Positions 15,769 through 37,000 of a stretch of DNA of 64,000 bases are shown here, piece after piece (within the stretch, counting starts at the first letter, position 1; every line of letters begins with the position of its first letter). Position numbers and translations under genes: made by a program. This stretch comes from Alphaproteobacteria bacterium. GTDB taxonomy: Bacteria > Pseudomonadota > Alphaproteobacteria > JAJFIK01. The stretch is taken from NCBI GenBank assembly GCA_050331455.1, contig JBHJGV010000029.1, positions 21,596 through 85,595 on the forward strand, written 5' to 3'. The notes beneath the pieces were generated by a model. That model saw only the letters and a list, made by a program, of their open reading frames with translations. It was not told the DNA's origin and searched no databases.

Positions 15769-16617
15769 TTAGAAATTGGCCTGCAGACCGAAGCCCCAGC
15801 GCAGAGATCCCCGGCGCCCCAGGCCCGGCTCGCCATCCATCAGAAAGTGGTCCCGACTGGCCCGGTCCCACTGCAATCCGGCGGTTAAATCCACCTGATC
15901 GGACAGACCCGTGACGATATTTGCTCCCAGGCCCGCATAACGATAGCCGGGAGCCGTGCCGCTGACCACCTTGCCGACGGCGGCATGGGCCGCAACGTCC
16001 AGGCGGGGCAGGACAGTAAAGGCCTTCTCGACGGCGGCCTCCAGGCTCGCGGTGTTGCTCAAGGCATCGTGGCACAGGCTCAAGGCCGGTTGCCCCGGGG
16101 CATCCATCAGGAGACGGATGACCGGTTCCACAGCGAGGCGGTCCTCATTGGCGATTGCCACCCGGGACCCCGCCCCGTTCGCCACGGCATCGGGGGTCAG
16201 CACGGGCAGGGTCAGAGCCTGAAGCCCCAAATCGAGCGTGAGGCCCGCCATGAGGGACTGTTTGACGCCGCCGAAAACATGGTAGCGCGCCTGGGCCGGC
16301 GCATTTTCCTCTTCAAAGGGGCGCACACCGCGATAGCCCCCGTAAAAGGGTCCATAGTCCACGCGTACCGTGCGGTGCAGCCCGGTCTCGGCGGTCTGGA
16401 TACCGCGGAACACATGCTCACTGTCGAAGTTAACCTCGTGGAAAACGGAAAAACGATATCCCTCGTCTTCGACAAGGTGAACGGGTTGCGGCCCGCGCTC
16501 GACGCTCACGGCTCGGGCCGGCTGGGGCTGAAGCAACAGCCCCAGGGCAACTCCGACGGCCGCACCGGGCAAAGCCGCCGTGCCGCGGGCGCCCGTGCGC
16601 CGGCACGCGGCGCCCAT
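15769..16617 (-). CDS. hypothetical outer-membrane beta-barrel-like protein
   Basis: Signal-like N-terminus (AALPGAAVGVALGLLLQPQPARA), alternating amphipathic strands, and a C-terminal aromatic residue (...GFGLQANF). Start position uncertain; the ORF track begins at 16686. Confidence 0.5.
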   Translation of the reverse strand: MGAACRRTGARGTAALPGAAVGVALGLLLQPQPARAVSVERGPQPVHLVEDEGYRFSVFHEVNFDSEHVFRGIQTAETGLHRTVRVDYGPFYGGYRGVRPFEEENAPAQARYHVFGGVKQSLMAGLTLDLGLQALTLPVLTPDAVANGAGSRVAIANEDRLAVEPVIRLLMDAPGQPALSLCHDALSNTASLEAAVEKAFTVLPRLDVAAHAAVGKVVSGTAPGYRYAGLGANIVTGLSDQVDLTAGLQWDRASRDHFLMDGEPGLGRRGSLRWGFGLQANF

Positions 16618-16849
16618 GCCGCGCCCACCGCGGAAGGCCGCGGCGGGCGCGCTTATTGTGTCGGTCCCCACGAAAAAAGCCCCCAATGCTTCGGGTCGGT
16701 TCCACGCAGCCCCTGAACGACCTTCAAAAGCCGCCCCTCGTCCCGGATCGCAGCCTGTGACACCACCGCATCAATTGCGGGGTTGCAGCCACGCCGCAGA
16801 TCAGGATCTGCGCACGGGCCTTAAAGTCCGGCTAAAATCAGCTTACAAA

Positions 16850-18912: not shown

Positions 18913-19512
18913 TTAAAACCGCCGTTCACCCACGCGGACAATATCGCCCGGCTGAATTTTGGTTTGGGAGGTGGCCGGAACGGCGATTTCCGCCTGACTT
19001 CCGGCACGGGTCAGAAAGATGGTCCGGTTATTGGCCCGCGGCGTGAACCCGCCCGCCATGCTGATCGCATTCAGCACATGCATATTGGCCACGTAGGGGA
19101 ACTCTCCGCCCCGCTGGACTTCGCCGAAAATGTAGAAAGGCCTGTTCTCCTCGACCTCGATGCTGACCCGGGGCTCGACGAGATATTGGGCGAAGGCTTC
19201 CGTCAGGCGCTCTTCCGCCTCGCGCAGCGTGAGTTGATTGACATCGACCACGCCGACCAAGGGCAAGGCGATGCCACCGGTGGCATCCACCTCGAAAGAT
19301 CCCGACAGATTGGTTTCATTGAAAACGATGACCCGCAGTTGATCCCGAGGTCCCAGGCGGTAGGCCTGCTGGTTCACGGCGGATACGGGCATGACATTGG
19401 CCGAAGCCGAGGTCATGGGCTCCGGTTGCATGGCACAGCCGGCCATGAGCACGCAGGCAATCACCGGCCCGAAGACCCTGGACGGCATTTTGGCAACAAA
19501 CGACATGATCAT
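18913..19512 (-). CDS. polysaccharide export protein (Poly_export/OPX family, ExoF/Wza/GumB-like), short 199-aa form, lipoprotein
   Basis: Lipoprotein signal VIACVLMAGCAMQ. YRLGPRDQLRVIVFNETNLSGSFEVDATGGIALPLVG is the Poly_export (PF02563-type) motif. A SLBB-like segment and C-terminal QPGDIVRV follow. Confidence 0.8.
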   Translation of the reverse strand: MIMSFVAKMPSRVFGPVIACVLMAGCAMQPEPMTSASANVMPVSAVNQQAYRLGPRDQLRVIVFNETNLSGSFEVDATGGIALPLVGVVDVNQLTLREAEERLTEAFAQYLVEPRVSIEVEENRPFYIFGEVQRGGEFPYVANMHVLNAISMAGGFTPRANNRTIFLTRAGSQAEIAVPATSQTKIQPGDIVRVGERRF

Positions 19513-19707: not shown

Positions 19708-21084
19708 TCAGGTCCGAAAGGCGGGCATAGTGGCCGGGCCATAGGCCGGGTGCGCCATCGCGGGCGCCGCCGTCGCCTGTGCATGGTCATACCGGGCCCG
19801 CTCGGCCGCAACGAAAACAATCAGCATGATGACCCAGGACACATTCTGCCCCAGGAGGATCGTGCTTTCGGTCAGGTTGTGAACAATAGCGTAGAGCATC
19901 AGTCCCCAGGCGATATTGTGCGTATGGGGATGACTGTCTCGTGCGATCCGCAGGGCCTGGTCGAAACGCCACAGAATGGGGAAAAACAACAGTACGCCAA
20001 TGATACCCAGGTTCAGCCAGATATCCAGAAAGCCGTTATGGGCCTGGTTGAGCTGTCGGATGAAATAGACCGGGGCGGTCAAGTTGACCGAATCGAGCCC
20101 CACGGCCCAGAATGACATGTGCCCATACCCCAGCAGCCAGCGCTCACTCGCCTTGTCCGACACATAGTCCCAGATGATCGTACGGTCCGTGAAGGTCACG
20201 TCGGCCACGATGACGCCCAGCACATCGTCGGATTCGATGCCGAACCCGAAAACCAGGATCCAATAGGTCAGGAACAAGAGGGTGAGGAACATCATCAGTG
20301 TGGTCCCCACCGAGACCCGGAGCAGACGGGATGCTATGAGAGCCACAATCGTCAGCACGGGGATAATCAATATCTCTTGCTGAGCCGTTTTGGACTTGGC
20401 GATCACCAGAATGAAGACGAATGCCGCCAGAAAAACCACATTGGCCAGCTTCAGCACGGCGCCCGGCAGATCGCGGTGGATGAATAGGCCCGTAATGAAG
20501 GCATAGCCCGCAATCGCACCCATGGTGTTCTTGTGGTTCTGGAAGCCGCGGAACTCATCGAGGCTCGTGTAGGACGTGCCCATGGTGGCGGCGATCAGGC
20601 TCTGGATCAGGGCCACGGCAAAGGCGGCATACAGCACAAAGAACATCCGCCGGGGGCTGCGGACATAGATGCTGGTGATGATCAGACAATAAATGATGAT
20701 GAGCGCGAGCACGGCGCGGCGGAAACTGATTGAGGGGACGATGGCCCAGTTTGACGAAAGCAGAACATAGCCCATCAGCAGAAGGAGCGGCAGATAGCCG
20801 AGAATGGTGCGCAAGAACCGTTCCGGCTGGCGTAGGATCAGCAGGCTGAGCAGCGCCGCAGCGGCGAGCCAGAAGAACTGGTTCAGCGTGTTGGCCTTGG
20901 AGGCCTGAACGGCGAAGGCCGTGATGCTCAAATCGATCTGTTCGATCTCCGGTGTAAAGATCTGGAACAGATAGAGCAGGATGATGAAGAAGATGACCTC
21001 GGCAGCGCGATAGACGGGCGCGTGGTCTGGCCGGCCCCAGAGCGGAGCCGGCGCGATCGACGCAGTGGTTTGGCCGCCAAACAT
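19708..21084 (-). CDS. O-antigen ligase / Wzy-type polysaccharide polymerase family membrane protein (ExoQ-like)
   Basis: About 10-12 hydrophobic helices. NQAHNGFLDIWLNLGIIGVLLF matches the Wzy_C/O-antigen ligase motif. Sits between the exoP-like and exoF-like genes. Looks visibly lower in GC than its neighbours. Confidence 0.75.
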   Translation of the reverse strand: MFGGQTTASIAPAPLWGRPDHAPVYRAAEVIFFIILLYLFQIFTPEIEQIDLSITAFAVQASKANTLNQFFWLAAAALLSLLILRQPERFLRTILGYLPLLLLMGYVLLSSNWAIVPSISFRRAVLALIIIYCLIITSIYVRSPRRMFFVLYAAFAVALIQSLIAATMGTSYTSLDEFRGFQNHKNTMGAIAGYAFITGLFIHRDLPGAVLKLANVVFLAAFVFILVIAKSKTAQQEILIIPVLTIVALIASRLLRVSVGTTLMMFLTLLFLTYWILVFGFGIESDDVLGVIVADVTFTDRTIIWDYVSDKASERWLLGYGHMSFWAVGLDSVNLTAPVYFIRQLNQAHNGFLDIWLNLGIIGVLLFFPILWRFDQALRIARDSHPHTHNIAWGLMLYAIVHNLTESTILLGQNVSWVIMLIVFVAAERARYDHAQATAAPAMAHPAYGPATMPAFRT

Positions 21085-21186: not shown

Positions 21187-23484
21187 TCAGGCCTGATCGG
21201 ACCGGTTGCCCCAAAGCCCCGATCCGCCGCCCGCGGCCCCCGCCGTCTGTCCGTAATTGCCATACCCATAAGCGCGCCGGTTCGACGTGTCCGCAAAGGT
21301 CACGACACCGCCGAGAATGTTCGACTGGACCGCCCTTAATTCCTTCAGGGCCATGGCCACATCGCCCCGGGCGGTCTTGCGCGCCCGCACCACAAACACC
21401 ACGTGATCGGCAAGGGGCGCCAGTTGTAACGTGTCGCCCACGGGAAGGATCGGGGCCGTATCCAGGATGATGACGTCGAAGTGCTCTTTCAGGGTGCTGA
21501 GCAATTCCTGAAACGCATTGCTGCCGAGCAGACTGCCGGGATCAGGCGCGGCACGGCGCATGGCGAGGACGGCGAGGCCGGTCTCCGGTTCCCGGAGCAT
21601 GGCGGCCCCGAGGGAGACCTCACCATTCAACACTTCCGTCAGGGAATGTTCGAAGGGCAAGTCAAGCTGCCAGCCCACCTTGGGCATGCGCAGATCGGCC
21701 TCAATCAGCACCGTGCGCTTGCCGGATTTCGCCGATGCCAAAGCAAAGCACATGGCATTGGTGGTCTTGCCTTCCGCGGGCAGGGCGGAGGTGAACAGCA
21801 CGACGTGACGCGTGCGCTCCCGGTCGGCCAGGGTCACCGTGGCCAAAAGTGTGCGATAGGCCTCCGAGAAACCCGATAACGGGTGTTGGAGCATGTAGCG
21901 GAAGGGACGCTGGGAGTCGCCGCCGCTGATCTGAGGCACGGATGCCAGATGCGGCAGACCCAGGATGTTTTCCATATCCTCGGGGGTGCGGATTCCCGGT
22001 GCCAGGGCTTCCATGGCCAACGCACCGGCGAAAGCGAAGATGCCGGCCAGCACCGCACCGGCGAGAACGATGACGGTCCGCTTCGGCTTGAACGGTTCGA
22101 TGGGCACCGAGGCTTCGCTCAGGATACGCGCGTCCACCTGGTCGGATTCCTTCAGCTCGGTGACTTCTTTCGAGCGGGCCAGGAAGGTCTGATAAATCGA
22201 ACGCGTCGCCTCGGCATCGCGTTCAAGATCCTTCAGTCTGGAAATCGACGTGGCCTTCGAACTCTTTTCGGCTTGATATTTATTGGTGTATTCATCGAGG
22301 GTTTCGGCGAGGGAGCGCTCACGCTCCCGGGAAACATCCACCTCGTTTTCGAGGCTCTTTACGATCAGATCGACTTCCCGGCGGATCTGGGCTTCCAGAT
22401 CCTCAAGCTCGCGGGTCACCTGAACCATATCCGGGTGGGTGGGCTTGTACCGCGAGGACAGTTCAGCACGCCGGCGGATGATAGCGGCCTGCTGGGTGCG
22501 CAACCCGATGATGACCGCGGAGTCCAGCACTTCGCCAATGGACTCGGCATTGGCGCGGGAGCGCACGAGGTTTTGGACGAGCCGGAGCCGGGCTTCTTTT
22601 TCTGCAATGTCCGCTCGGGTCTGGGCAAGCTGGCGGTTCAGGTCGGAGAGAAGCTGCTCATCGAGGCTGCTTTCGCCCACGGCCCCGAGGTCGTTCTCCG
22701 CCCGATATTCCTCGATCGCCCGCTCTTTGCTCACAAGGTCCGCTCGAAGCTCCTGGAGACGCTTGTCCAGGAGATCGGTCGCCCGGTCCGTGGCCTCGAA
22801 TTTATTGGTGAGTTGGGTTTCGAGATATTGGCTGGCGACGGCATTGGCGAGCTGTTGCGCCAGTTTCGGCGACTTGGAAATGGCGGTCACATCAATGATG
22901 TATGTCAGGTCGGCCCGGGTGACGTCGATCCGTTTGCGCAGAGTCTCCAGCACTTTGCGTTCCAGAACATCGGCCCCGTCAAGGCCGGCGCCGTCGTCCG
23001 GCCCCTGGGCGAGCGCCCGCAGATCACCGATCCAGTCAAGCGACATCATATATTGGAGAAAGCCGGACGGTGGGCCATCCGGGTTGAATTCCGGGTGCCG
23101 CAACAGATCCAGGTCCCGGATGACGTTGCGAAGCACCACATCAGAGGCAATGACCTGAACCTGCGTGTCGATGAAATTCTGATCGGTGATCAGAAAATCG
23201 CCGTTGTTCTGGTCCGTTGCCATGATCTCCGTTTCCGGCTTGGCAATCAGGATCCGGGCATTGGTTCGGTACTGGTGCTCCATGCCCAGCGCCAGGGCCG
23301 CCGCGAGGGCCGTACCGAGAACAGTGACAACTGTAATGAAGACGATGCGACGCCGAATGACCCGGAACAATGACTGGAGATTTAGCGTTTCCTGGGTCTT
23401 GGGGCCGTAAGCCCCCTCCACCATTGCGGGCGCCGGACCATAGGCCGGCACGCCATACACCATATTCGGAGCTGAGGTTTCCAT
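21187..23484 (-). CDS. polysaccharide co-polymerase (PCP-2a) with C-terminal BY-kinase domain (ExoP/Wzc/GumC-like chain-length determinant)
   Basis: N-terminal Wzz-like region with TM helices (RRRIVFITVVTVLGTALAAALAL and AGAVLAGIFAFAGALAM). Extensive coiled coil. Walker A LPAEGKTTNAMCFALASAKSGKRTVLIEADLRMP. Asp-rich Walker B VIILDTAPILP. Tyrosine-containing C-terminal tail RRAYGYGNYG. Confidence 0.85.
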   Translation of the reverse strand: METSAPNMVYGVPAYGPAPAMVEGAYGPKTQETLNLQSLFRVIRRRIVFITVVTVLGTALAAALALGMEHQYRTNARILIAKPETEIMATDQNNGDFLITDQNFIDTQVQVIASDVVLRNVIRDLDLLRHPEFNPDGPPSGFLQYMMSLDWIGDLRALAQGPDDGAGLDGADVLERKVLETLRKRIDVTRADLTYIIDVTAISKSPKLAQQLANAVASQYLETQLTNKFEATDRATDLLDKRLQELRADLVSKERAIEEYRAENDLGAVGESSLDEQLLSDLNRQLAQTRADIAEKEARLRLVQNLVRSRANAESIGEVLDSAVIIGLRTQQAAIIRRRAELSSRYKPTHPDMVQVTRELEDLEAQIRREVDLIVKSLENEVDVSRERERSLAETLDEYTNKYQAEKSSKATSISRLKDLERDAEATRSIYQTFLARSKEVTELKESDQVDARILSEASVPIEPFKPKRTVIVLAGAVLAGIFAFAGALAMEALAPGIRTPEDMENILGLPHLASVPQISGGDSQRPFRYMLQHPLSGFSEAYRTLLATVTLADRERTRHVVLFTSALPAEGKTTNAMCFALASAKSGKRTVLIEADLRMPKVGWQLDLPFEHSLTEVLNGEVSLGAAMLREPETGLAVLAMRRAAPDPGSLLGSNAFQELLSTLKEHFDVIILDTAPILPVGDTLQLAPLADHVVFVVRARKTARGDVAMALKELRAVQSNILGGVVTFADTSNRRAYGYGNYGQTAGAAGGGSGLWGNRSDQA

Positions 23485-24133
23485 CGACTGTCAGACCCTT
23501 TGAGGTGCCGATCGGCATCACACATCCGGCGTGCATCGGCGAAGGCCCTCCACGAGGGCGCGAAGCGATCCGCGCGCTGACAAGCTCTGTGGGGCCGGGC
23601 TGCGCCGCTCAGCCTCCACCGAAGGATGTGCTGCAGGCGCGAGAGATTAATTCAAGATTCTTTCCGCACTCTTGAAAGCAGTGGCGCCGGGCTCGCGCAT
23701 CCACTCGCAATCACCTACGCGGAATAGCCTCTCTCTTTCCGTGTTGCAAGGGCGTCCGCGCGACGGCTCCTCCACCATAAGCGGTAGTCCAAACGCATCG
23801 TAAGTTGCAGGCCCCGATGAAATCCGGGGCCGCCCCGGAGTCCTTTCGTCGGCCTTCGCGCTGCCGGCCGGGCTGGTCGTCGGCCTTCACGCTGCCGGCC
23901 GGGCTGGCCTGCGCCATTCTCGCGACAGGGCTTTTAACATCCCATTCGAACATGGATCTTTGGGGCCTTATCCACAGGCTGCCTGGCCGAATGTCCGCGA
24001 GGGCGCCGCCTTTCGGATTTGTTGTGGATGCGCGAGGAATTTAGGTGTGGCCAGCGGATTTGTCAGGTATGAAGGGTAAGCTTTGGAAGGACTCGCCGAA
24101 TGGTGGGGTGTTTTGATCCGGGATGTAGAGTGG

Positions 24134-25048
24134 ATGGCTTCAGATCCCTATATAAGCGTGATTATCCCTCACCTGAACCAGCCTGACCTGCTGAAGCGAT
24201 GCTTGGACTCTCTCCAAATGCAGACCGTGTCGGCGGATCGCTTCGAGGTGATCGTGGTCGATAACGGCTCGTCGGACTTGCCTGTCGATGTGATCCAGCA
24301 CTTCCCAAATGTGAGACTGTGCCAGGAGAGCCAAGCCGGACCGGGACCGGCCCGGAACAAGGGAGTCGAGGAGAGTCAGGGCGATCTCTTGGCCTTTATA
24401 GACTCCGACTGCTATGCCGATCCGGCCTGGCTCGAGACGGTGAAAACCTGCCTGACCCGGACGGGTGCACCCCCGGTCATCGGTGGTGACGTGCGCATAC
24501 CCCTGGCGCAGCCGCCCCACCCGACGATGATCGAAGCGTATGAAATCGTATTCTCGTTTCGCCAGAAGTTTTATATCGAACACCATGGCTATTCCGTAAC
24601 GGCGAATTTGGCTATGACACGGTCGGCGTTCGATCTCGTCGGTGGGTTCGGCACCATTTCGATCGCCGAGGACATGGATTGGGGGCGCCGCGCCCGACAG
24701 GTTGGGCTTGAGATCGCGTTCGAGCCAACCATGGTGGTGTTCCACCCGGCGCGGACGTCATTTCAGGCGCTCCGAAAGAAGTGTTCACGCTTGAACGCGC
24801 ACCGGTTCCACGAGTGGCAAGCGGCTCATCGGGGACAAGTGAGCTGGTTGATGTCCGCCCTCCTCATCGCGGTCTCGCCGGTTCGTGATGTGCCTCGCAC
24901 GCTGGCATCCTCAAGGCTGGATCGGTTGCCGGATCGGCTGAAGGCAGCCTATGTGTTGCTGGCAGTGCGCTTTTTCAGGGCCCTCGATATGGTGGAACTC
25001 TGGCGCGATCCGGCGCATCGCAACGCAGGGGTGGTTTGGAACCGCTGA
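24134..25048 (+). CDS. glycosyltransferase family 2 protein
   Basis: ISVIIPHLNQPDLLKRCLDSLQMQT...EVIVVDNGSSD...GPARNKGVEESQGDLLAFIDSDC is the GT-A fold DxD region. Divergent from the exoP-like gene. Start at MASDPYIS. Confidence 0.85.
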   Translation: MASDPYISVIIPHLNQPDLLKRCLDSLQMQTVSADRFEVIVVDNGSSDLPVDVIQHFPNVRLCQESQAGPGPARNKGVEESQGDLLAFIDSDCYADPAWLETVKTCLTRTGAPPVIGGDVRIPLAQPPHPTMIEAYEIVFSFRQKFYIEHHGYSVTANLAMTRSAFDLVGGFGTISIAEDMDWGRRARQVGLEIAFEPTMVVFHPARTSFQALRKKCSRLNAHRFHEWQAAHRGQVSWLMSALLIAVSPVRDVPRTLASSRLDRLPDRLKAAYVLLAVRFFRALDMVELWRDPAHRNAGVVWNR

Positions 25049-25261
25049 CACGAAGACAGGGGCACAGTTGTCCTCACCGTGCTGATGCTATCCGACGGTT
25101 TGGTCTTTAAACCATCCGTGGGGAGATGGCTGGACCCGGGCAATCGTCAACTCAGCGGCAAACCCTTCCCTGATCCCAGGCATTGGTTGGACCGCGGCCA
25201 TATTAACCTTTGATTGAGAGACACCCTTGAAAATATTGGTCAGAAGTTAGGGTGAGGAGAC

Positions 25262-25774
25262 ATGATCGTGGGAGCGAGGCAGCGTTCGGCCAAGCCGAAA
25301 GTCATGGTAATATCCTCCCCGGGCGGGCACTGGGTTCAGATCCGTCGTCTCAGACCCGCCTGGACCGGGTGTGCCGTGACCTATGTCACCACCGATCCGG
25401 GGTATCTCGGCGAAATCGCGAAGGATCCCGTGGCTGAAGGCAGCACACCGCCCCGCTTTTTTGTCGTGCCTGACGCCAATCGCTGGAACAAGATGCGCCT
25501 CGCCGTTCAGATGCTGATGATCCTGGCTGTGGTCGTTCGTATCCGGCCCGACGTGATCATTACAACGGGAGCGGCGCCCGGCTATTTCGCCGTGCGGTTC
25601 GGGAACCTTATCGGTGCACGGACGATCTGGATCGACAGTATTGCCAATGCCGAGAAATTGTCCCTGTCGGGACAGATGGCGGGTCGCTTCTGCACCCTGT
25701 GGCTGACCCAGTATCAGCACCTGGCCCGCACCCAGGACCAACAGGGCCCATCCTTCAAAGGATCAGTGATCTGA
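25262..25774 (+). CDS. Alg14-like oligosaccharide biosynthesis protein (UDP-GlcNAc transferase membrane/accessory subunit; Cps14F/EpsF-like)
   Basis: KVMVISSPGGHWVQIRRL...RFFVVPDANRW...RPDVIITTGAAPGYFAV matches the Alg14 family (PF08660-type). RBS GAGGAGA. No Alg13-like partner ORF nearby. Confidence 0.7.
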   Translation: MIVGARQRSAKPKVMVISSPGGHWVQIRRLRPAWTGCAVTYVTTDPGYLGEIAKDPVAEGSTPPRFFVVPDANRWNKMRLAVQMLMILAVVVRIRPDVIITTGAAPGYFAVRFGNLIGARTIWIDSIANAEKLSLSGQMAGRFCTLWLTQYQHLARTQDQQGPSFKGSVI

Positions 25775-25822
25775 GAAAGCCCGCCTCGAACGCCGGCCCT
25801 TCGATCACTGTCAAAACACCCC

Positions 25823-27466
25823 TCACGATGTGAGGTCGACCGGTGCCTCGTCGGTCTCAGGCGTCTCACCGATGCCGAGACACCGGGAGGCCGCGGCGAT
25901 GGCATCAAGGGCCGCAGCCGCCTGAAGATCCGACAGAACCGCGGTCAGGTCGGCTTTGAGCGCAGCCTGATCGGCCCCATTGGCCATGGCAAGTTCAAGC
26001 CAGACATAGGCCAGGGGATTGGACTGGGTCACCCCTTCCCCTTTGATGTGCAGAATGCTCATAACGAACTGGGCGTTGGGATGGTTGGCCTGGGCCGCCC
26101 GTTTGAACCAGTGCACGGCGGTTGAGAGATCGCGCACGCGTTCGTCGCCTTCATGGTAGAGCAGGCCGAGGGCCCAGGCGGCATCGCCGCGCCCTGCCTC
26201 GGCGGCACGGGTCAGATAGGTGACCGCCCGCGGATGGTCGGCCCGGATACCCCAGCCATTGGCATAGAGCACGCCCACATTGTAGGCCGCATCGATGAGG
26301 CCCTGATCGGCGGCCTTTTCGAACCAGACCCGCGCCTGTGCCGGATCGCGGCGCCCGGTTTCGCCGCTCATGAGAAGCACGGCGAGATTGTACTGGGCAT
26401 CGGCATGTCCGTCTTCTGCCGCGCGCTCATACCATTTGGCGGCGATTACCGGATCCCGGGCCAAGGGTCCGTCATCGGACAGGGCCAGGCTCGCCAGTTC
26501 CATCTGCGCTGCTGTGTGCCCGCCATCCGCGGCTTTCTCAATCCAGGCGAGTCCCAGCCCCGTGTCCCGGTCTTGGCCGGCATCGTTCAAGTAGTGCAGG
26601 CCCAGGCGATACTGGGCCTCGACATCCCGCCGCATGGCCGCGTAAATGAGATCGGACAGGCTTTCGGCGTCTATCCCGCCGCCTCCGACCGCATCAGCGG
26701 CCCGGACCGCGGCTGCCGGGACGGCTTTTCCCTCCGTAGACGGCGCATCCGAGCCCGCCGGAACATCTGAGCCGGCAGCGACATCTGGGCCGGCAGGCAC
26801 GATGGGTGCCGGGCACAGGCCGGTCTCGGCGAGCAGGGCGTCGCTTGGGATGACGGGCGGTGCCGCCGCATCGGCCGGATCGGCGGTTGAGGCCGCCGTA
26901 ATGCGCTCCAGTGTCAGACCGTTCGCAACCAGATAATGGCTTAATCCCTTCGCGCCGCTGACCGCAATCGGCAGGGCCAGGAAAGGCAGCGCATAGAGGG
27001 CCGCCTGCCGCGCCCGCGCCTGGACCGGAAAACGCCATGCGCCGACGCCAAGGCTGAGCAGAGTGGGCCGGTTGGGTTCCTGAAGGGTTCGGGAAATCAG
27101 CCCCCGGAGGATATCGATGCAGGGCGCTTCCGGGTCGCCTCGCCAGGCGACGAGGTCGGCGAGGGGAAGGGTCCGGAAAGGGGGCGGCGCCTCGAGCCGC
27201 GAGAGGCGGGCCTGCACCAGGTGCCGTTCGCGGAACGCTGCAAGGGCTTCAACCCGTATGCGAGCCGACGCGACACTGTCGCGGGACCAGAGCACCAGCA
27301 CGGTGCGGGCGGTGGCCCGCTCCCGGTCGATGGCGTCGATCAGATCCTCCCCGACCCAGGATGGGAAATCCCAGGCAACCGTGTATCCCGCCCGCTCCAG
27401 GGCCGCCGCGACACGGGCCGCGACGGGCCAGTCCGGACGCAAGTAGCTGATGAATATGTCCGCCAC
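25823..27466 (-). CDS. TIR-domain protein with predicted transmembrane segment and C-terminal Sel1-like repeat (SLR) array
   Basis: N-terminus MADIFISYLRPDWPVAARVAAALERAGYTVAWD...ARTVLVLWSRDSVASARIRVEALAAF matches the bacterial TIR_2-type domain. Hydrophobic segment LYALPFLALPIAVSGAKGL. Pro/Ala-rich linker. Then at least 5 Sel1 repeats (AQYRLGLHYLND..., AAKWYERAAEDGHADAQYNLAVLL..., ARVWFEKAADQGLIDAAYNVGVLYANGWG..., AVTYLTRAAEAGRGDAAWALGLLY..., AVHWFKRAAQANHPNAQFVMSIL...). Confidence 0.8.
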   Translation of the reverse strand: MADIFISYLRPDWPVAARVAAALERAGYTVAWDFPSWVGEDLIDAIDRERATARTVLVLWSRDSVASARIRVEALAAFRERHLVQARLSRLEAPPPFRTLPLADLVAWRGDPEAPCIDILRGLISRTLQEPNRPTLLSLGVGAWRFPVQARARQAALYALPFLALPIAVSGAKGLSHYLVANGLTLERITAASTADPADAAAPPVIPSDALLAETGLCPAPIVPAGPDVAAGSDVPAGSDAPSTEGKAVPAAAVRAADAVGGGGIDAESLSDLIYAAMRRDVEAQYRLGLHYLNDAGQDRDTGLGLAWIEKAADGGHTAAQMELASLALSDDGPLARDPVIAAKWYERAAEDGHADAQYNLAVLLMSGETGRRDPAQARVWFEKAADQGLIDAAYNVGVLYANGWGIRADHPRAVTYLTRAAEAGRGDAAWALGLLYHEGDERVRDLSTAVHWFKRAAQANHPNAQFVMSILHIKGEGVTQSNPLAYVWLELAMANGADQAALKADLTAVLSDLQAAAALDAIAAASRCLGIGETPETDEAPVDLTS

Positions 27467-28038: not shown

Positions 28039-31000
28039 ATGGCTCAAATCACTGGCACCGGTGGAAACGACAACGGCATCGACAACCCCGCCCTGATCGG
28101 AGCCGGCGATGCGGACACGATCACAGGGCAGGGCGGCAATGACAGCCTGAGCGGACTTGGCGGAGACGACTCTCTTATTCCCGGCACCGGCGTCGATACC
28201 GTGGACGGCGGAGCCGGCAATGACACCATCGATCTGGGATCGATCAGCGGCACATTCGCGCCCGTCGAGATCTATGATGGGGGGGCGAACACGGACGAAC
28301 TGCGCGCCAACCTGACCAATGACACCCTGGACCTGACCCAGGCCACTTTGATCAGCATTGAAAACATTCTCATTACCGGAAGCAGCAATCGCACGGTGAT
28401 CCTGACGGCAGCCCAGATCGCGGGACTGTCCCGCATCGAGGGCGCCACGGAAATCCGCGTTGTCGGCGGCACCACGGTTGACCTGAGCGGCCTGACGGCC
28501 CCAGATGGATCCGGCCTGCCCACACCCATCGTGCTCGACGACGGCGACCAGACCATTGTGTTCGGCACCAACGACCTGACCGTGAATGGCGGCACGGGCA
28601 ACGACACGGCGGACCTGTCAGGGATCGCATTCCCCATCACGGTCAATCCGTCGGGCTCCGCAACCTTCACGGACGGTGGCGGCAATCTCGTCACCCTCAC
28701 CTTCATCAATATCGATACGATCACGGAAGGGAATCCGCCCCAGACCGTCAACGGCACCGGCGGTGACGACAATCTGACGGGTTCGGAGGATGCCGACATC
28801 ATCAATGGCTTTGCCGGCAACGATGTGATCGACGGCGCCCGGGGCGCCGACACCATCGTTTCGGGCCCCGACACCATCGGCGGCGGCAGCGTTGACCGGG
28901 ACAGCGTTAATGGCGGTCCGGGTGCGGACAGCATCACCGGCGGGGCGGGTCCGGACTCGCTGGTCGGTGACGACGGCAACGCCAGCATCGGCGAGAACGA
29001 CACCCTGATCGGCGGCATCGGCAATGACACGCTCGTGGGCAATGGCGGGGACGACAGCCTCGACGGCGGTGCGGATGATGACAGCCTGCTCGGTCAGGAC
29101 GGGAACGATGAACTCCTTGCGGGAGCTGGCAATGACATCGTCTTCGGCGGCGCCGGCACGGACACGTTGAGTGGCGGCGTTGGCGACGACATCCTGGACG
29201 GGGACGCCGGAGACGACAGTATCGAAGCCGGTGACGGCAATGACCTCATCGAAGCCTCCGAAGGCAATGACATGGTCGATGCCGGCGGCGGCGAAGACAC
29301 CATCCGCTTCAACGAAGGCGATGCGAGCCTGGTCGGCGGATCTGGCAACGACGTCTTCGACTTCGTGAGCTTCGCTGAAAGTGGCTCGCCGACCCTGGAT
29401 GGCGGTGCTGGCGACGACATATTCGAGACCACGTCACGAGGCGATTCCATCATCGGTGGTAACGGCGCCGATGATATTCGCGCGAGTGGCTTCGGTGGAT
29501 TGGATTTCATTGACGGCGGCGCCGGCAACGACACCATCGATCTTTACGGCACCGGCGTCACGGTGCTTGGGGGGGACGGTGACGATTCCATCACCGACGC
29601 GTTCAGGAGCGCTGGCGCATCGAGCATAGAAGGTGGGCTCGGCAACGACACCATTGAGAGCACGGCCAGTGCCGATACCATTGGGGGCGGCGAAGGGGAC
29701 GACCTCATCACGCCGGGTCTGGGCAGTGACAGTGTCGAGGGCGGGATCGGCAGCGACACCATTGTGTTCAACGGTCTGCGTGCCAATTACAGCATCAGCC
29801 GTGTCAATGCCGGCAATATCAATGAGCTGCGCGTCACCGACGTAACCCGTCCGAACGACAGAGATACGATTACAGGTGCGGAATTTCTGCGCTTCAGCGA
29901 CCAGGATTTCGTTCCGACCACGGCCAATACGGGCCTGTTGTTAACCGCGGGCAATGGCGGCAATACACTGACGGGCACGCTCTTTGACGACATGCTGACC
30001 GGCGGCACGGGCGATGACAGCATCGAGGCCGTTGCCGGTAACGATGTGGTGATCGGCGGAGAGGGCACCGACACGGTTGAGGGTGCGGATGGCAATGACG
30101 TCCTGTTCGGCGGCGCGGGAGCCGACAGCGTCGACGGCAGCGCCGGTAACGATTCGATCGAAGGCGACACGGGCGCTGAAGACAGCGGCGACAGCGACAC
30201 CCTGCGCGGCGGCGCCGGCAATGACAGCATGCTGGGCAATGGCGGAGACGACGACATAGCCGGCGGTGACGACAATGACACCCTGCGCGGACAGGACGGC
30301 AATGACAGCCTGCAGGGCGACGGCGGCAATGACAGCCTGTTCGGGGACGCCGGCGACGACACCCTTGAGGGCGGCGACGGGAATGACCGTCTCGACGGCG
30401 GCGTGGGCGTGGACAGCCTGGCCGGAGGGATTGGCAACGACACGATCACATCGATCAATGATGAAGACGCCTTCGTCGACGGCGGCGACGGCAACGACAG
30501 CCTTCGATTTGCGGAATTCTCGGTCAGGATTTCCGGCGGCGACGGCAACGACTTCCTGGATTTCGTTTCTTTCACGGGAAGCGGCAGCCCCACGCTGGAC
30601 GGCGGCGCGGGCAACGACGCCATCGAGACGACCTCGCGCGGAGACTCCATCCTGGGCGGCGACGGCGATGACGACATCCGGGCGAGCGGCTTCGGCGGAT
30701 CGGACACCGTGGACGGCGGCGCCGGCAATGACACCATCGACATTTACGGCAGCCAGACGACGGTCCTGGGCGGCGCCGGTGATGATTTCATTTCGGACCC
30801 GTTCAGATCCGGCAGTGCGGCCAGTGTCGATGGCGGCGAAGGCAATGACACCATCAGCGCCACGAACCAAGCCAACACCCTGACCGGCGGGGCTGGCGAC
30901 GACGAAATCGACGGCCGCGGCGGCGACGATACGGTCTTCTTCACCGGGACCATCGCCGACTACACGATCCAGGAGGGTGTTGATTCCGGCTTCGTCACCA

Positions 31001-34000
31001 TCACGGATCTGCGGCCGGGCGTCCCGGATGGGGTGGACCTGGTCCGGGGTGTGGAGACAGCGCAATTCGCCGATGGCTCGGTCACACTGAACCCCAACCC
31101 GCCCTCCTTCATCGTGGGCACGCCGGGCGACGACACTATCGTGGGAACGTCCGCGGGCGAACGGATCGATGGTCTGGCCGGCAATGACAGCCTGGGCATC
31201 ACGTCCGGCAATGACACGCTGAACGGCGGCGAAGGCAACGACACCCTTCGGTATTCGGAAGAAGACGTCTTGATCAGCGGCGGTCTCGGTGACGATTTCA
31301 TCGATTTCGCCACATTTACCGGAAACGGCAGCCCGACCCTCAATGGCGACGAGGGCAATGACATCATCGAATTGTCCAGTCGCTCGGACAGCGTCTCCGG
31401 TAGCGACGGGGATGACGATATCCAAAGCGGCGCATTTGGCGGCAATGATGTCGTCGACGGCGGCGCCGGCAATGACACCATCGATCTGCACGGCGCCGCC
31501 ATCACTGCGATCGGCGGCAGCGGTGACGACTTTATAGATTATATCAACACCAGCGCCGCGGCTGACATCACCGGCGGAACGGGCGACGACGCCATCGAAG
31601 GCACGCCCTTCGACGACACCATCGATGCCGGAGAGGACAACGACCGGATCACGCCCGGCACAGGCAGCGACTCCGTCGATGCGGGAACCGGTGCCGACAC
31701 GGTCGTTTTCAACGGCAACCGGGCCGATTTCATCATTACCCGGCAGAATGCCGGCGATGTGGACACGCTGATCGTTACCGATGTGACCCGCCCCAATGAC
31801 GTGGACACCATCACGGGCGCCGAAACCCTCACCTTCACGGATGGCGACTTCGTTCCGACCACGGCCAATACTGGTCTGGTGCAGACCGCAAGCGATGGCG
31901 GCGAGACGCTGACCGGTACGCCCCTTGACGACGTGCTGACGGGCGGCGCCGGCAATGACAACATCGACGGTCTCGCCAGCAATGACCTGTTGCGCGGCCA
32001 GGGCGGCGACGACACCGTCGTGGGCGGCGACGGCCGCGACGTGATCGAAGGCGGCGCCGGGCTGGACGATCTGTCCGGCGGGGCCGGCGACGACTCCCTC
32101 GCTGGGGACGACAACAACGGCAGCACCGGCGAGAACGACACCCTTCGCGGCGAAGCGGGCAATGACATCCTGTTCGGCAATGGCGGCAACGACCGGATAG
32201 AGGGTGGAACCGAGAATGACACCCTTGAGGGTCAGGACGGCGACGACGCGCTGCTCGGTGAGGATGGCAACGACAGTCTGCTCGGTGAGGGCGGTGACGA
32301 TTCCCTCGACGGTGGCCTGGGTAACGATACGCTGGATGGTGGTATCGGTTTTGACGTCCTCATCGGCGGCGACGGCAATGACCTCATCTCGAGCACCAGT
32401 GATGCCGACAGCAGCGTGGACGGCGGCAGCGGCGATGACTGGCTGCGTTACGCGGAGCACACCACGGAGATTCTGGGCGGGGACGGCAACGACTTCCTCG
32501 ACTTCGTCAACTTCGCCGGAAATGGTGCCCCAACCCTTGACGGCGGTGCGGGCGACGACATCATCGAGAGCACCAGCCGGAGCGACCTGATCATTGGCGG
32601 CGTGGGCAATGACAGTGTGCGCAGGGCCGGTTTCGGAGGCCAGGACACCATCGATGGCGGGGCCGGCAACGACACCCTGGAATTCTCCAGTGGCTCGCTC
32701 ACCACTGTGATCGCCGGAGACGGGGATGACGTGGTCGACTATGTCAGCGGCTCCGCCGCGGTGAATGCGGACGGCGGCGCCGGCAACGACACCATCGAAG
32801 GCACGGTTGCGGGTGATACCATTGGGGGCGGCGGCGACAACGACCGGATCACCCCCGGGGGCGGCGACGACGCGGTCAATGCCGGATCGGGCGAGGACAC
32901 CATCGTCTATTCCGGAAACCGCAGCGAATACTCCGTTGGCGGAACGGTCAACGGCCTCGTGATCGTCGATCTGCGCAACGGCAATCCGGAGGGCTCCGAC
33001 ACCATCACGAATGCGGAGTTTATCCGCTTTGCCGATGGCGACCTGCCCGTGTCCAGCGGCTTTGCAGGCCTTCTGATCAACGGCACCGGCGGCAATGACA
33101 ATGGCGAGCCGGGCGAGCAACCGGTGCTCGTCGGCACGATCCTGAACGACACCATCAACGGCCTCGCCGGCGATGACCGGTTGGAGGGGCTTGCCGGGTT
33201 TGACATCCTCAACGGGGACGACGGCGACGATACTTTGAACGGCGGCGACGGCGATGACGTGCTGGACGGTGGCACCGGCTTCAACGACATCGCCGAATTC
33301 GACGGTCTGCGCGCCGATTATCAAATCACCACGAATGGCAGCACCACGACGGTCATCGACCAGAACCTGATCGGCGGCAATGACGGCACCGACACGCTGA
33401 CGAATATCCGCATTCTGCGCTTTGCAGACCAGGACGTGGCCCTGTCCAACACCGCGCCGACCCTCGGCGCCGATACCCTGAGCGTGAACGAGGACACGAC
33501 CCTCAACACGCCTGTCGCCACCCTGCTGTCCAACGACTCCGATGCCGACGCCGATCCCCTCACTTTGGTCGGTGCCAACAATGCCGTGAACGGCACTGTC
33601 ACAGTCATCGGTTCTACCACGGTCCAATTCGTTCCGGCTGCGGATTTCAATGGTGCCGCCAGCTACGATTACACCGTCTCCGATGGGTTCACCACCAGCA
33701 CGGTCACGGTGACGGTAACGGTGAACCCCATCAATGACCGCCCCGTGGCCGGCGACGACACGGCCTCGACCAACGAGGATGTGGTCCTTGTGACGGGTGA
33801 TCTGCTCGCCAACGATACCGACGTCGACAACGACAGCCTGACCATCACCACGACCACCGTGATCACGAACCAGGGTGGGACGGCGACAAACAATGGCGAT
33901 GGCACCTTCACTTACACGCCGGCCGCCAATTTCTTCGGCAGCGATTTCTTCTTCTACAACGTGACCGACGGGAACGGCGGAAACGATTCCGCCCGGGTGG

Positions 34001-37000
34001 ACATCACTGTCTTATCCGTAAACGATGAGCCGGTAGCCGAGCCGGATTCCGCTTCGACCACGGAAAATGTCGCCGTCACCACACCGGATGTTCTCGCCAA
34101 CGATACGGATGACGACGGCGATACACTGACCATCACCGCCTTTGACGCAACGTCCGACCAGGGCGGCACGGTCACCGACAATCTCGACGGCACCTTCACC
34201 TATACGCCGGCAACGAATTTTGCGGGGACGGACAGCTTCACCTACACTGTGGCGGACGGTAATGGCGGTTCCGCCACGGGCACCGTCACCGTCACCGTGA
34301 CGGGCCAGAACAATGCGCCCGTCGCCTTGGACGACACGCTGACCCTCAATGAGGATATCAGCACCGTGACGGGCAATCTGCTCACGAACGACACGGATGC
34401 CAATGGCGATCCCTTGAGCCTTGTGGGCTTCGACACGGTCACAGCCAATGGCGGCGTGATCACCACGACCCCGTCCGGCACGGCCCTGCGCTACACTCCG
34501 GCGGCGAATTTCAACGGCACGGACAGTTTCACCTATACGGTGAGCGATGGCCGGGGCGGTACGGACACCGCCACGGTGAACGTGACCGTGACGGCGGTGA
34601 ACGACGCACCGGTCGCGGTCGCCGACACGACCGTCACCGCAGAGGACACGCCGGTCGTTACGCCGGTCTTGGCCGCGAACGACACGGATGTGGAGGGCGA
34701 CGTCCTCAGCGTCACGGGTTTCCCGGGCACTTCGGCCCAGGGCGGGACCGTGACCGACAATGCCGACGGCACCTTCACCTATACGCCGGCGGCGAACTTT
34801 ACGGGCACAGACAGTTTCACCTACACGGTGGAGGACGGAAACGGCGGCTCCGCGACGGGCACGGTATCCGTCACAGTCACGCCGGAAAACGATGCGCCGG
34901 TGGCCGGGGACGACAGCCTCGCAACGCTCCAGGACGTGCCTTTGGTCGTCCCGGGCTTGCTCGATAACGACACGGATGTGGACGGCGACAGTCTCTCCCT
35001 CGCAGGCTTCGACGCCGTCAGCACACAAAGCGGCTCCATTGTCTCCAGCGGTGCCAACACCGTCACCTACACACCGGCGGTCGGTTTCACGGGGACGGAC
35101 AGCTTCACCTACACCGTGGCCGACGGGAATGGCGGCACGGACACGGCGACGGCCACTGTCACCGTGTCTCCGGTGCCGAACCTGCCCAACCTGACCATCG
35201 CCAATGCGGTTCTGCCCGGCGGTGTTGAGGAACAGCAGGTCACGGTCAGCTACGACCTGATCAATAACGGGTCGGCGGATGCCCTGGGCGGCTTCATCAC
35301 CCGGCTGTATTTCTCCGAAGACATGGTCCTCGACAGCGGCGATGAACTGGAGCGCACCGTAAACTTCAGCGCGGATCTGCCGGCCGGCACCACCATCGGC
35401 CGGACCGCCCAGGTGACCCTGCCGGAAAATCCGGGCGAGATCTTCCTCCTCGTCCAGGTCGATGCGGTGAACTTTATTCCGGAAGGCTCCGAACTCGACA
35501 ATGTGGGTGTCAGCCCCGCCGCCGTCATCTCCCCGGAATACGACGCGGAAGTCACAGTCGCCCCCACATTGGCGCCCAACAGCCAGCCCTTCATCATCGA
35601 AGGGGTGGCCACGGATCTTCAGTCCGGTGGCGGCGCCGCGTTCGAATTCGTCACCATCGAGGCGGAAACGGATGGCGTGACCCGGACCTTCTCGGCCCAA
35701 ACGGACAGCCTGGGCCGCTGGTCCCTGCTCTATCAGCCGGGCCCGAAGGATGCCGGACCGGTGACCTTCGCTGCGCGCAATCCTGGCGTTCCGGGTGAGG
35801 ACAGCCTGCCGGAGGAAACCACCAGCCTGTTCGGCATGGACTTTGCCGAAACTTCCGTCAGCGGCACGGTCATCGAAGGGACCACGAAAACCTTCACGGT
35901 CAGCCTGGACAATCTGGCGGCGGTCGATCTGACCAATCTCTCTGTCAATCTGTTCGGGGTTAACCCGCTCCTCGATGTGGACGTCACCGCCCCAAACAAT
36001 CTGTCCGGAGAAACCTCGGTCGATGTGCTTGTCGATGTGACCGTGCCGGACAATCCGGGCTTCACCTTCGACAGCTTCGGGCTGCAGATCACCAGCCAGG
36101 AAGGCGCCGTTGCCGAGGCGCCGTTCAACCTGAACATCACCGACAATGTCCCAGTGCTGAGCTTCAGCGAATGGCCGCTCAATTCCGGCATGCTGCTCGG
36201 GGCGCAGACGCTGATCGATGTGGATGTCACAAATACGGGCGGCGACGACACGGGCGAGATCGTTATCACTCTGCCCGGCGGACCGGATTTCAGCTTCCTG
36301 TCCCTCGCCTCCTCCGAAACGATCGCCAATCTGGCCCCCGGGGAAAGCACGACAGTCACCTTGTCCCTGCAGCCCGAACAAGATGCGCCGATCGAGCTTT
36401 TCCAGGGCAATCTGGCCTTCAATTCCCCATTTACGGCCGCGAGCCTGCCCTTTGCCTTCAACACGGTCTCTTCGGAAACCGGCACCCTCGATCTCACCAT
36501 CGTGGATGAGCTGTTCTACTTCACGCCGGACATGCCAACGCTTGACGATGCCCGCGTCGTTATCCGGAACAACCTGACCAAGGAGATCGTGTTCCAGAGC
36601 GATGACGTGGACGGAACGGCCCTGATCGAGGATCTGCCGGTCGGCTTTTACGACATCGAAGTCAAAGCGGACGACCATGACGCCTTCGCCCGGACGGTCG
36701 AGATCAAGGCTGGCGAAACCACGACGCTCGAGGCGTTCTTGTCCCAGCAGGTGGTCAGCTACACGTTCACGGTCACGGAAGTGGAACTGACCGAGACCTT
36801 CGACGTCACGATCGAAGCGAACTTCAACACCGTCGTGCCCCATCCGCAGGTTCTGGTGGAGCCCACAGTCATCGATCTTGCCGGGCTCGACACCATCGGC
36901 GACAAAAAGACGGTCGATCTGGTGCTGACGAATATCGGCCTGATCCAGACCGAGGACGTCACCCTCAATCTGGGCAGCCATCCCTACTACAAGATCGAAC

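Follow-up and report, generated by a model that had tools for sequence, protein, structure and literature searches.

The window, a stretch of 64,000 nucleotides from an alphaproteobacterial genome that was analysed as a whole, contains a gene encoding a protein with an N-terminal TIR domain, a hydrophobic segment and a C-terminal array of Sel1 repeats (TIR-Sel1). This protein belongs, as a divergent member, to a very large class without experimental characterisation, in which a TIR domain is followed by a transmembrane (TM) helix and a variable domain (TIR-TM-X). It is read here, tentatively and at somewhat short of an even chance, as a receptor-like bitopic inner-membrane TIR protein tied to envelope/polysaccharide biology. 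Domain content, fold, conserved residues and synteny, as well as the position and charge bias of the TM helix across the family, were established directly. The positions of the features are listed in Table 1.

The window protein is identical to the NCBI entry MGF1455389.1, 'MAG: toll/interleukin-1 receptor domain-containing protein [Alphaproteobacteria bacterium]' (MAG, metagenome-assembled genome). Its family comprises six species-level members, namely the window genome, four orthologues and P0227. The GTG start of the open reading frame (ORF) is fixed by a Shine-Dalgarno-like AAGAGG motif 5 nt before it and by the N-terminus MADIFISY, which is common to many TIR relatives. The GC content of the gene is 67.6%, and both its GC and its third-position GC equal those of the neighbouring genes. 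In Pfam, TIR_2 (PF13676) was matched at aa 4-108 (E 1.9e-14, 54.6 bits against a cutoff of 28 bits) and Sel1 (PF08238) in six stretches (E 5.6e-44, 147 bits against a cutoff of 30.7 bits).

For the TIR region, an AlphaFold2 (AF2) model was built from an alignment of 23 sequences, and aa 1-130 of this model had a pLDDT above 90. Since beta-strand A begins at residue 3, there is no signal peptide ahead of the domain. A Foldseek search of the model against the PDB returned 52 chains at E<=1e-3, and all 50 of the chains listed were TIR domains; the top match was AbTir-3AD (7UXU, TM-score 0.73 on the target), and further matches were the TIR domains of MyD88, SARM1, BtpA, SPARTA and TIR-STING. Searched as a single sequence with phmmer against PDB sequences, the TIR region found no TIR domain, a profile of the five orthologues gave a marginal match to 7UXR alone, and the 23-sequence profile matched PdTIR (3H16), BtTir (7UXR), AbTir (7UWG/8G83) and SARM1 TIR domains. 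The TIR_2-like N-terminal domain proposed in an earlier sequence-only reading is therefore confirmed, by the Pfam match as well as by a predicted fold that is closest to AbTir.

In the profile alignment, the subfamily motif 'SxWVxxE' falls on AbTir 'KDWTNYE' (W204...E208) and PdTIR 'KEWPQKE', indicating that E73 of the window protein, which aligns with AbTir E208, occupies the catalytic Glu position, as the same earlier reading had proposed. For comparison, an exhaustive HMMER search was made and its 148 nearest 50%-identity representatives were taken as relatives; the E73 column is Glu in every one of them and throughout the six-member family. Where the WxxxE motif has its Trp (R69 in the window protein), 143 of the 148 relatives have W (131), F (7) or Y (5) and two have R; Arg, a rare derived state, was found in 6/6 family members (five orthologues and P0227). 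Among 43 positions with a conservation of 70% or more in the subfamily, 32 are retained by the clade. Its changes are A9 to L, W31 to A/S, L50 to R, W69 to R and P85 to Q, with G39 and R80 variable and minor like-for-like changes besides; the BB-loop G39 is replaced by S or D in two orthologues. The box-1 FxSY motif, D33, W60 and S67 are kept. In AbTir, W204 and E208 face inward and contact the NAD analogue, and W204 was reported to be important for the production of cyclic ADP-ribose (PMC10641520). Judged from sequence, the window domain is a real TIR domain with the catalytic Glu kept and the pocket remodelled. Enzymatic activity appears possible, and canonical NADase or cyclase activity cannot be assumed because R69, W31 and the BB-loop Gly are altered.

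The TIR domain is followed by the hydrophobic segment QAALYALPFLALPIAVSGA (aa 154-172), an 18-residue run of residues that are neither charged nor strongly polar; the linker around it is otherwise disordered. Its KD19 hydrophobicity is 1.49 (1.48-1.79 in the orthologues), its Wimley-White octanol sum is -3.3 kcal/mol, and its Hessa-scale sum, about +5 to +6.3 kcal/mol, is unfavourable because of two conserved prolines. AF2 with the 23-sequence alignment gave a single long helix at 148-181 (pLDDT 50-66). Among the 148 nearest TIR representatives, a strong hydrophobic helix was present in 84 and lay after the TIR domain in 81; these family TM helices start at a median of 156 residues from the TIR start, 55 of them within 140-185 and most at about 150-170, and their mean net flank charge is +2.5 on the N side and +0.3 on the C side. 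The corresponding values of the window segment are a start at 154 and flanks of +3 and 0. On its N side, aa 131-153 contain four K/R and no D/E, and the next 96 residues contain four K/R and 12 D/E. P0227, which has the clade-derived A31, R69 and Q85, both Cys motifs ('ETGxC' and 'ASxCL') and 43% identity in the Sel1 array, carries a clear TM helix at residue 155 (KD19 2.56). The single TM helix claimed earlier is thus marginal by hydrophobicity, and the call is credible because related TIR proteins have a strong TM helix at the same position. The topology claimed with it, TIR inside and Sel1 outside, is likely from the family TM helices and the flank charges but has to reckon with a weakly hydrophobic segment; overall we consider it probable for the window protein.

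The solenoid consists of six repeats beginning at aa 284, 320, 357, 393, 429 and 465 in a register of 36-37 aa; at least five had been claimed, and both Pfam and the register give six. The AF2 helix hairpins of this part had a pLDDT of about 85, and its Foldseek matches were LpnE, LceB, EsiB (c5321), HcpC and AlgK/AlgKX. We take the structural neighbours HcpC, EsiB, LpnE, LceB and AlgK to be exported proteins. Among the closest Sel1 arrays, 46 of 120 are preceded by a strong TM helix or signal peptide, and the top matches have neither. The linker is Pro/Ala-rich as had been stated (38% Ala+Pro in aa 177-268); within it, a short helix (aa 208-215) is conserved and precedes a GxC motif with the invariant C218 (codon 26813-26815). 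Exactly two cysteines, C218 and C529, are invariant in the family; they bracket the solenoid, both on what would be the periplasmic side, and could be joined in a disulfide. Pairwise identity among the five orthologues is 64% in the TIR domain, 61-65% in the juxtamembrane and hydrophobic segments, 60% in the Sel1 part and 20% in the linker. At the C-terminus, a D-L-x-S-COOH end (aa 543-547; 25826-25840, minus strand) follows a variable tail in the five orthologues and is absent from P0227; it could be a docking or protease-recognition tag.

The window as a whole is core chromosome, with tolQRB, ruvB, cysH, lplA/B, a polysaccharide locus, a giant adhesin gene, gmk, yicC, mltG and fabF/G/D as well as rplI, dnaB, alr and mlaEF, and no mobile-element or defence genes were found anywhere in it. 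All neighbours within 10 kb on each side of TIR-Sel1 are polysaccharide, adhesin or housekeeping genes. No ThsA-type gene (SIR2/SLOG or Macro-TM) adjoins the TIR gene within 10 kb on either side, and no SAVED, STING, cyclase or short-Ago/APAZ was found in the window protein (Pfam) or the window. The earlier statement that the gene has no recognisable partners was right for such defence co-effectors but overlooked a conserved polysaccharide-export neighbourhood.

In five of the six genomes (the window and loci L001, L003, L004 and L007), TIR-Sel1 lies directly upstream of orthologues of the Wzz-kinase, Wzy and Wza genes, with no Wzy-type gene found in the L004 cluster. The cluster is of the Wzx/Wzy ('GumC family') type of polysaccharide assembly and export. 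The intervening glycosyltransferase genes are the variable part of the locus, with a WecG-type glycosyltransferase there in orthologous loci. The Wzz-kinase orthologues beside TIR-Sel1 in L001, L003, L004 and L007 show 53-83% identity. Exactly five close Wzz-kinase orthologues were found (100, 83, 71, 54 and 53%), on the same contigs as the five TIR-Sel1 proteins. The identities are paired, with TIR-Sel1 at 69, 57, 52 and 50% against Wzz-kinase at 83, 71, 54 and 53%, and this parallel divergence is as expected from vertical co-inheritance. The opposite flank of TIR-Sel1 differs in every genome: the giant adhesin gene in the window, P-II and an SbtA-like gene and then an adhesin gene in L001, a MarR-family gene and a DUF87 ATPase gene in L003, UbiA and GtrA in L004, and other genes in L007. 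The contexts of the distant TIR relatives P0062, P0128, P0126 and P0194 are unrelated. A functional tie of TIR-Sel1 to the polysaccharide/envelope machinery is possible, at a chance that stays a little below even, and shared ancestry in a narrow clade is the alternative explanation of the synteny.

Table 1. Positions of the TIR-Sel1 gene, its parts and the polysaccharide-locus genes in the window
Feature	Position	Strand	Remarks
TIR-TM-Sel1 ORF, complete	25823-27466	-	547 aa, GTG start, TGA stop
TIR domain, aa 1-130	27077-27466	-	Pfam, AF2 pLDDT >90, Foldseek, profile matches
R69 codon, Trp position of WxxxE motif	27260-27262	-	derived substitution
E73 codon, catalytic-position Glu	27248-27250	-	aligned to AbTir E208; codon verified
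Conserved hydrophobic segment QAALYALPFLALPIAVSGA, aa 154-172	26951-27007	-	probable but weak TM helix
Ala/Pro/Gly-rich acidic linker, aa 173-268	26663-26950	-	
Sel1-like solenoid, aa 269-500	25967-26662	-	six repeats and preceding helix; Pfam, AF2, Foldseek
C-terminal capping helices and tail	25826-25966	-	invariant C529 (codon 25880-25882)
Glycosyltransferase-type genes	24083-25774	+	GT2 24083-25048, Alg14-like 25262-25774; between TIR-Sel1 and export genes
Wzz/GNVR/AAA_31 co-polymerase tyrosine-kinase type ('GumC family')	21187-23484	-	Pfam; conserved neighbour
Wzy_C-type polymerase/ligase-like membrane protein	19708-21084	-	conserved neighbour
Poly_export/SLBB, Wza-type outer-membrane export protein	18913-19512	-	conserved neighbour

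In a word-indexed search of 5.8 billion proteins, four full-length orthologues were found (50-69% identity), and a scan of 185,579 GTDB species genomes gave four loci, all in 'uncultured Alphaproteobacteria bacterium' MAGs of SRP128890, a project accession that rests on record titles where these name it. No full-length orthologue was found in the JGI metagenome scan, and the genome and metagenome contig scans gave none outside the SRP128890 MAGs. Runs SRR6462991-93 or MAG assemblies belonging to the same project are the source of all six members, indicating that several related species of Alphaproteobacteria occur together in a single community that was sampled.

The TIR subfamily around the window protein is far larger: at E<=1e-3 the exhaustive HMMER search gave 15,362 representatives, and at E<=1e-10 it gave 8,825. 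An N-terminal TIR domain followed by a single TM helix and a variable C-terminal domain is a common layout among the nearest relatives (81/148), and in 57 of these 81 the C-terminal tail behind the TM helix measures 100 aa or more, mostly without Pfam domains. Across 145 subfamily members, 86 Pfam families were counted, and the C-terminal parts are diverse and mostly unannotated; Sel1, WD40 and TPR each occur in four. Further TIR-TM-Sel1 proteins are P0062, P0194 and P0274, and P0257 is a TIR-Sel1 protein without a TM helix. The TIR-TM-X proteins P0121, P0122, P0151, P0194 and P0227 belong to the same TIR subfamily as the window protein (33-47% identity) and have the TM helix at the same distance from the TIR domain with the same positive-inside bias, and in some members of the class Sel1 repeats follow it (P0194, P0227, P0274, P0062). 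In contrast to this class, the window span is proline-rich and much less hydrophobic, the TIR substitutions are specific to its clade, and synteny with exopolysaccharide (EPS) genes is seen in its own clade only.

Sel1 repeats preceded by a TM helix have been noted in conflict systems (PMC7159879), and bacterial fusions of TIR domains with repeats are already known (PMC7075850). A literature search found no description of the TIR-TM-X class, nor of the TIR + TM + Sel1 architecture, and the combination of a TIR domain, a TM helix and a Sel1 ectodomain with the W-to-R change and polysaccharide synteny appears to be undescribed in the searchable literature.

Other arrangements were also observed in the subfamily. 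Some class members have tandem TIR domains ahead of the TM helix (P0139). In a second branch (P0124, P0126, P0129, P0131-P0134; L025), a soluble 'VLPFxNxSGDxEQEYFSDGI...' module replaces the TM helix at the same spacing and is followed by TPRs; these proteins are often labelled 'adenylate cyclase' by JGI, and the L025 gene is apparently split by frameshifts. In L024 (8001-9421), two adjacent TIR_2 genes, encoding P0128 (TIR-TM) and a 231-aa TIR protein, overlap by about 50 nt, which suggests a paired TIR system.

In the receptor-like reading of the window protein, the N-terminal TIR domain would lie in the cytoplasm, followed by one proline-containing span at about aa 154-172, the acidic linker and, on the periplasmic side, the solenoid of six Sel1 repeats. 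The parts of this model that we infer are its topology, the ligand, the oligomerisation, the enzymatic output and the biological role. The periplasmic array would bind an envelope partner or ligand, for example something that the neighbouring polysaccharide machinery contains or makes, and this binding would control clustering in the membrane, which in turn would drive TIR-TIR self-association in the cytoplasm. Clustering is proposed because TIR enzymes are activated by self-association, as in SARM1, AbTir filaments, SPARTA tetramers and TIR-STING filaments. Since E73 is retained, the most likely output would be E73-dependent glycohydrolysis of NAD+ (or a related nucleotide), and the product chemistry is probably altered because the WxxxE Trp is Arg; a purely scaffolding TIR domain would be the alternative. 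A bolder proposal, which we hold to be rather unlikely, is that the window protein and its thousands of TIR-TM-X relatives are bacterial transmembrane receptors with Toll-like logic, in which a rapidly diversifying extracytoplasmic ligand-binding domain would govern, from across the membrane, how a TIR enzyme assembles in the cytoplasm, and that in this clade the module moved from conflict to exopolysaccharide surveillance or regulation, with W69R giving a different nucleotide-derived signal.

Several observations weigh against the receptor-like reading. The segment QAALYALPFLALPIAVSGA is weaker than every genuine TM helix of the window (KD19 2.0-2.7) and is within the range of soluble enzymes (1.7-1.85 for FabF and FabD), and AF2 confidence over it is low, with a pLDDT below 50 at aa 131-268 of the full-length model built from six sequences. 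The changes at W69, W31 and the BB-loop G39 may mean that the TIR domain is no NADase, and the invariance of E73 within the six-member family is by itself weak evidence because 44% of the TIR columns are invariant among these similar sequences. In the synteny, gaps of 0.3-0.9 kb between TIR-Sel1 and the export genes, together with the opposite-strand genes that lie between them in the window, argue against strict co-transcription. The sixth genome (P0227) has both TIR-Sel1 and a related cluster, unlinked, the GumC-type cluster being on another contig in a rearranged gene order (L077), and the next-closest EPS cluster outside the clade (L078) is without a TIR gene. All six genomes are closely sampled MAGs of one project, and the conserved adjacency may come in part from shared ancestry. 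In the sixth genome, the TIR-TM-Sel1 gene runs in the same direction as LprI and GH5 'cellulase' genes and lies 100 bp downstream of them (L026, 8403-11515).

In an explanation that we consider unlikely, the window protein would be a soluble cytoplasmic TIR-Sel1 adaptor with no membrane span, and the segment would be either a remnant of a TolB_N-like first beta-strand ('VLPFxNxSGD') or a protein-docking element. The KD19 of 1.49, the two conserved prolines and the positive Hessa-scale sum fit this, as do soluble enzymes of the same genome that score as high, and P0124, P0126, P0129 and P0134 carry 'RRVAICVLPFINLSGD' at the same distance from the TIR domain, with BLAST alignments running through. 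A weak hhalign match connects the segment with the strand of the 'RRVAICVLPFINLSGD' module (E 4e-4, probability 33%), but this probability is low, only about 37 columns are aligned, and the rest of the TolB_N-like domain is not seen downstream. A TIR-Sel1 protein without a TM helix does exist (P0257), and several of the closest Sel1 arrays lack both a TM helix and a signal peptide; P0227 of the same lineage, however, has a clear TM helix at the same position, as do most relatives. The 18-residue uncharged run with Arg on its N side and an acidic region on its C side also speaks against a soluble protein, AF2 gives a helix for the segment and not a strand, and the segment cannot be buried in a domain because the linker is otherwise disordered.

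The main rival to the receptor-like reading, itself fairly unlikely, is a stand-alone antiphage sensor-effector acting by abortive infection. The Sel1 array would sense phage attack or envelope damage, the TIR domains would oligomerise and NAD+ would be depleted, and the proximity to polysaccharide and adhesin genes would be incidental or these would be phage-receptor loci. Such a single-protein system needs no partner gene, ThsB_TIR is matched by 110 of the 145 nearest TIR relatives, and TIR-TM relatives have domain-level PADLOC matches to SAVED-TIR, PDC-S66, Ago-associated TIR and ThsB models. The invariance of the catalytic-position Glu across the subfamily and the C-terminal diversity of the TIR-TM-X class, which is typical of conflict systems, point the same way. 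The window protein itself, however, had no PADLOC match at E<=1, and its TIR domain departs from the consensus of the defence type (W69R, W31A/S, variable BB-loop Gly). Moreover, the gene lies in core chromosome without mobile-element or defence neighbours and shows stable EPS synteny with vertical co-divergence in five species, whereas defence genes are typically patchy and island-borne. A secreted host-directed virulence factor of the BtpA/TcpB/TcpC type has next to no probability and was rejected on architecture and host: the fold is similar to that of BtpA, but the TIR domain is N-terminal and followed by a hydrophobic segment, a secretion signal is missing, the hosts are alphaproteobacterial MAGs of uncultured environmental organisms, and the WxxxE Trp, which as cited in PMC10641520 was reported to be important for the microtubule effects of BtpA, is lost. 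Nothing in this analysis supports a defence or virulence role for the TIR-Sel1 gene itself. It is very unlikely, too, that TIR-Sel1 is a dedicated regulator or anchor of the giant RTX/cadherin-type adhesin. The earlier placement of the gene between an exopolysaccharide locus and this adhesin is correct for the window, where the adhesin gene is its divergent neighbour, and an orthologous adhesin gene lies nearby in L001, there with the two unrelated P-II and SbtA-like genes in between; the adhesin is, however, adjacent in only 2/6 family genomes and absent from the flanks in L003, L004, L007 and L026, and the partnership was rejected since the adjacency is not conserved.

Compared with known systems, the window TIR domain has the same fold as AbTir, PdTIR/PdTLP, BtTir and BtpA/TcpB, and its conserved Glu aligns with the catalytic E208. 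It differs from the AbTir-type NAD+ hydrolases in being N-terminal, with a probable TM helix and a Sel1 ectodomain behind it, and in having Arg in place of the WxxxE Trp. The TIR fold and the conserved Glu are also shared with Thoeris ThsB, TIR-SAVED, TIR-STING, SPARTA TIR-APAZ and Pycsar TIR, whereas ThsA, cyclase, Ago, SAVED and STING are absent, there is no PADLOC match, and the setting is core and syntenic. In the TIR-TPR/TIR-WD40 proteins (group 6, Toshchakov and Neuwald 2020), alpha-solenoid repeats follow an N-terminal TIR domain as in the window protein, but these proteins are longer than 700 aa, mostly actinobacterial, without a TM helix and with non-canonical boxes 1-3 (PMC7075850); the window protein has a TM-like separator, and its repeats are Sel1, a commonly exported type, rather than the TPR/WD40 of cytoplasmic TIR fusions.

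With PodJ-type polar factors and with ExoR and AlgK, periplasmic Sel1/TPR proteins from envelope and exopolysaccharide systems of Alphaproteobacteria and Pseudomonas, the window protein shares Sel1 arrays of the same general type, with AlgK/AlgKX also found as structural matches, and some database relatives of its Sel1 part are named 'localization factor PodJL' and have a TM helix ahead of the repeats. ExoR and AlgK have roles in the regulation and secretion of EPS. The NCBIfam scores of the window protein were 37 bits against a cutoff of 450 for ExoR, 44.8 against 700 for AlgK, 37.8 against 330 for MotX and 78 against 350 for MerG; since its scores are far below the cutoffs, it is no orthologue of ExoR or AlgK. 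PodJ, ExoR and AlgK have no TIR domain, and the window protein has neither the peptidoglycan-binding domain of PodJ nor the lipobox of AlgK.

The likeness to Toll-like receptors, which had been pointed out from the order of TIR domain, TM helix and solenoid, stands as an analogy only: both would have a solenoid ectodomain, one TM helix and a TIR domain in the cytoplasm. The polarity of the window protein is inverted (N-terminal TIR domain, type II), the repeats are Sel1-like and not leucine-rich, there is no homology outside the TIR fold, and the layout is shared by many relatives (81/148) and so is not unique. By this analogy, proximity-induced signalling through TIR domains would be the natural model for the window protein. 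The TIR domains of Toll-like receptors are non-catalytic scaffolds with box 2 and box 3 motifs, whereas prokaryotic TIR domains lack box 3 and typically box 2 as well (PMC7075850).

Some features of the surrounding DNA were recorded in addition. The giant adhesin-like ORF (28039-40539, plus strand; 4166 aa) matches HemolysinCabind (RTX), Cadherin_4/5 and Big_9 and is divergent from TIR-Sel1 across a 570-bp intergenic region; the orthologue in L001 was called at 4943 aa and is 56-62% identical over the N-terminal 1000 aa. A 751-aa ORF without a Pfam match (16580-18835, plus strand) is convergent with the Wza-type gene and recurs at the same position in L001 and L003 with about 44% identity; it may belong to the polysaccharide locus as a component not yet characterised. 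A 577-aa ORF (54022-55755, minus strand) has a TPR array at its N-terminus fused to a 2OG-Fe(II) oxygenase domain (2OG-FeII_Oxy_5) at its C-terminus and adjoins a large CarboxypepD_reg/TonB-dependent-receptor-like outer-membrane protein (55812-59216). The Rfam scan of the whole window gave no match. The promoter and terminator scan gave nothing above chance, bar one hairpin at the TIR-Sel1 stop codon; this GC-rich hairpin, followed by a T-rich tract (25821-25835, minus strand), overlaps the stop, was not above chance in the scan itself, and fits transcription ending ahead of the convergent Alg14-like gene.

Bacterial TIR domains are known as cytoplasmic NAD+-consuming antiphage effectors or as secreted virulence factors. 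Because all six carriers are uncultured MAGs of one project, work on this family will need heterologous hosts. The natural W-to-R change in WxxxE could reveal how this residue sets product specificity, and the size of the uncharacterised TIR-TM-X class is the more notable by-product of the analysis. The stable association with polysaccharide export in core chromosome hints at a role other than defence. If the receptor-like reading is true, a TIR domain linked outward through a membrane span and a ligand-binding solenoid would represent a different control of TIR assembly, and the window protein would be the closest bacterial analogue of Toll-like receptors, by logic and not by ancestry.

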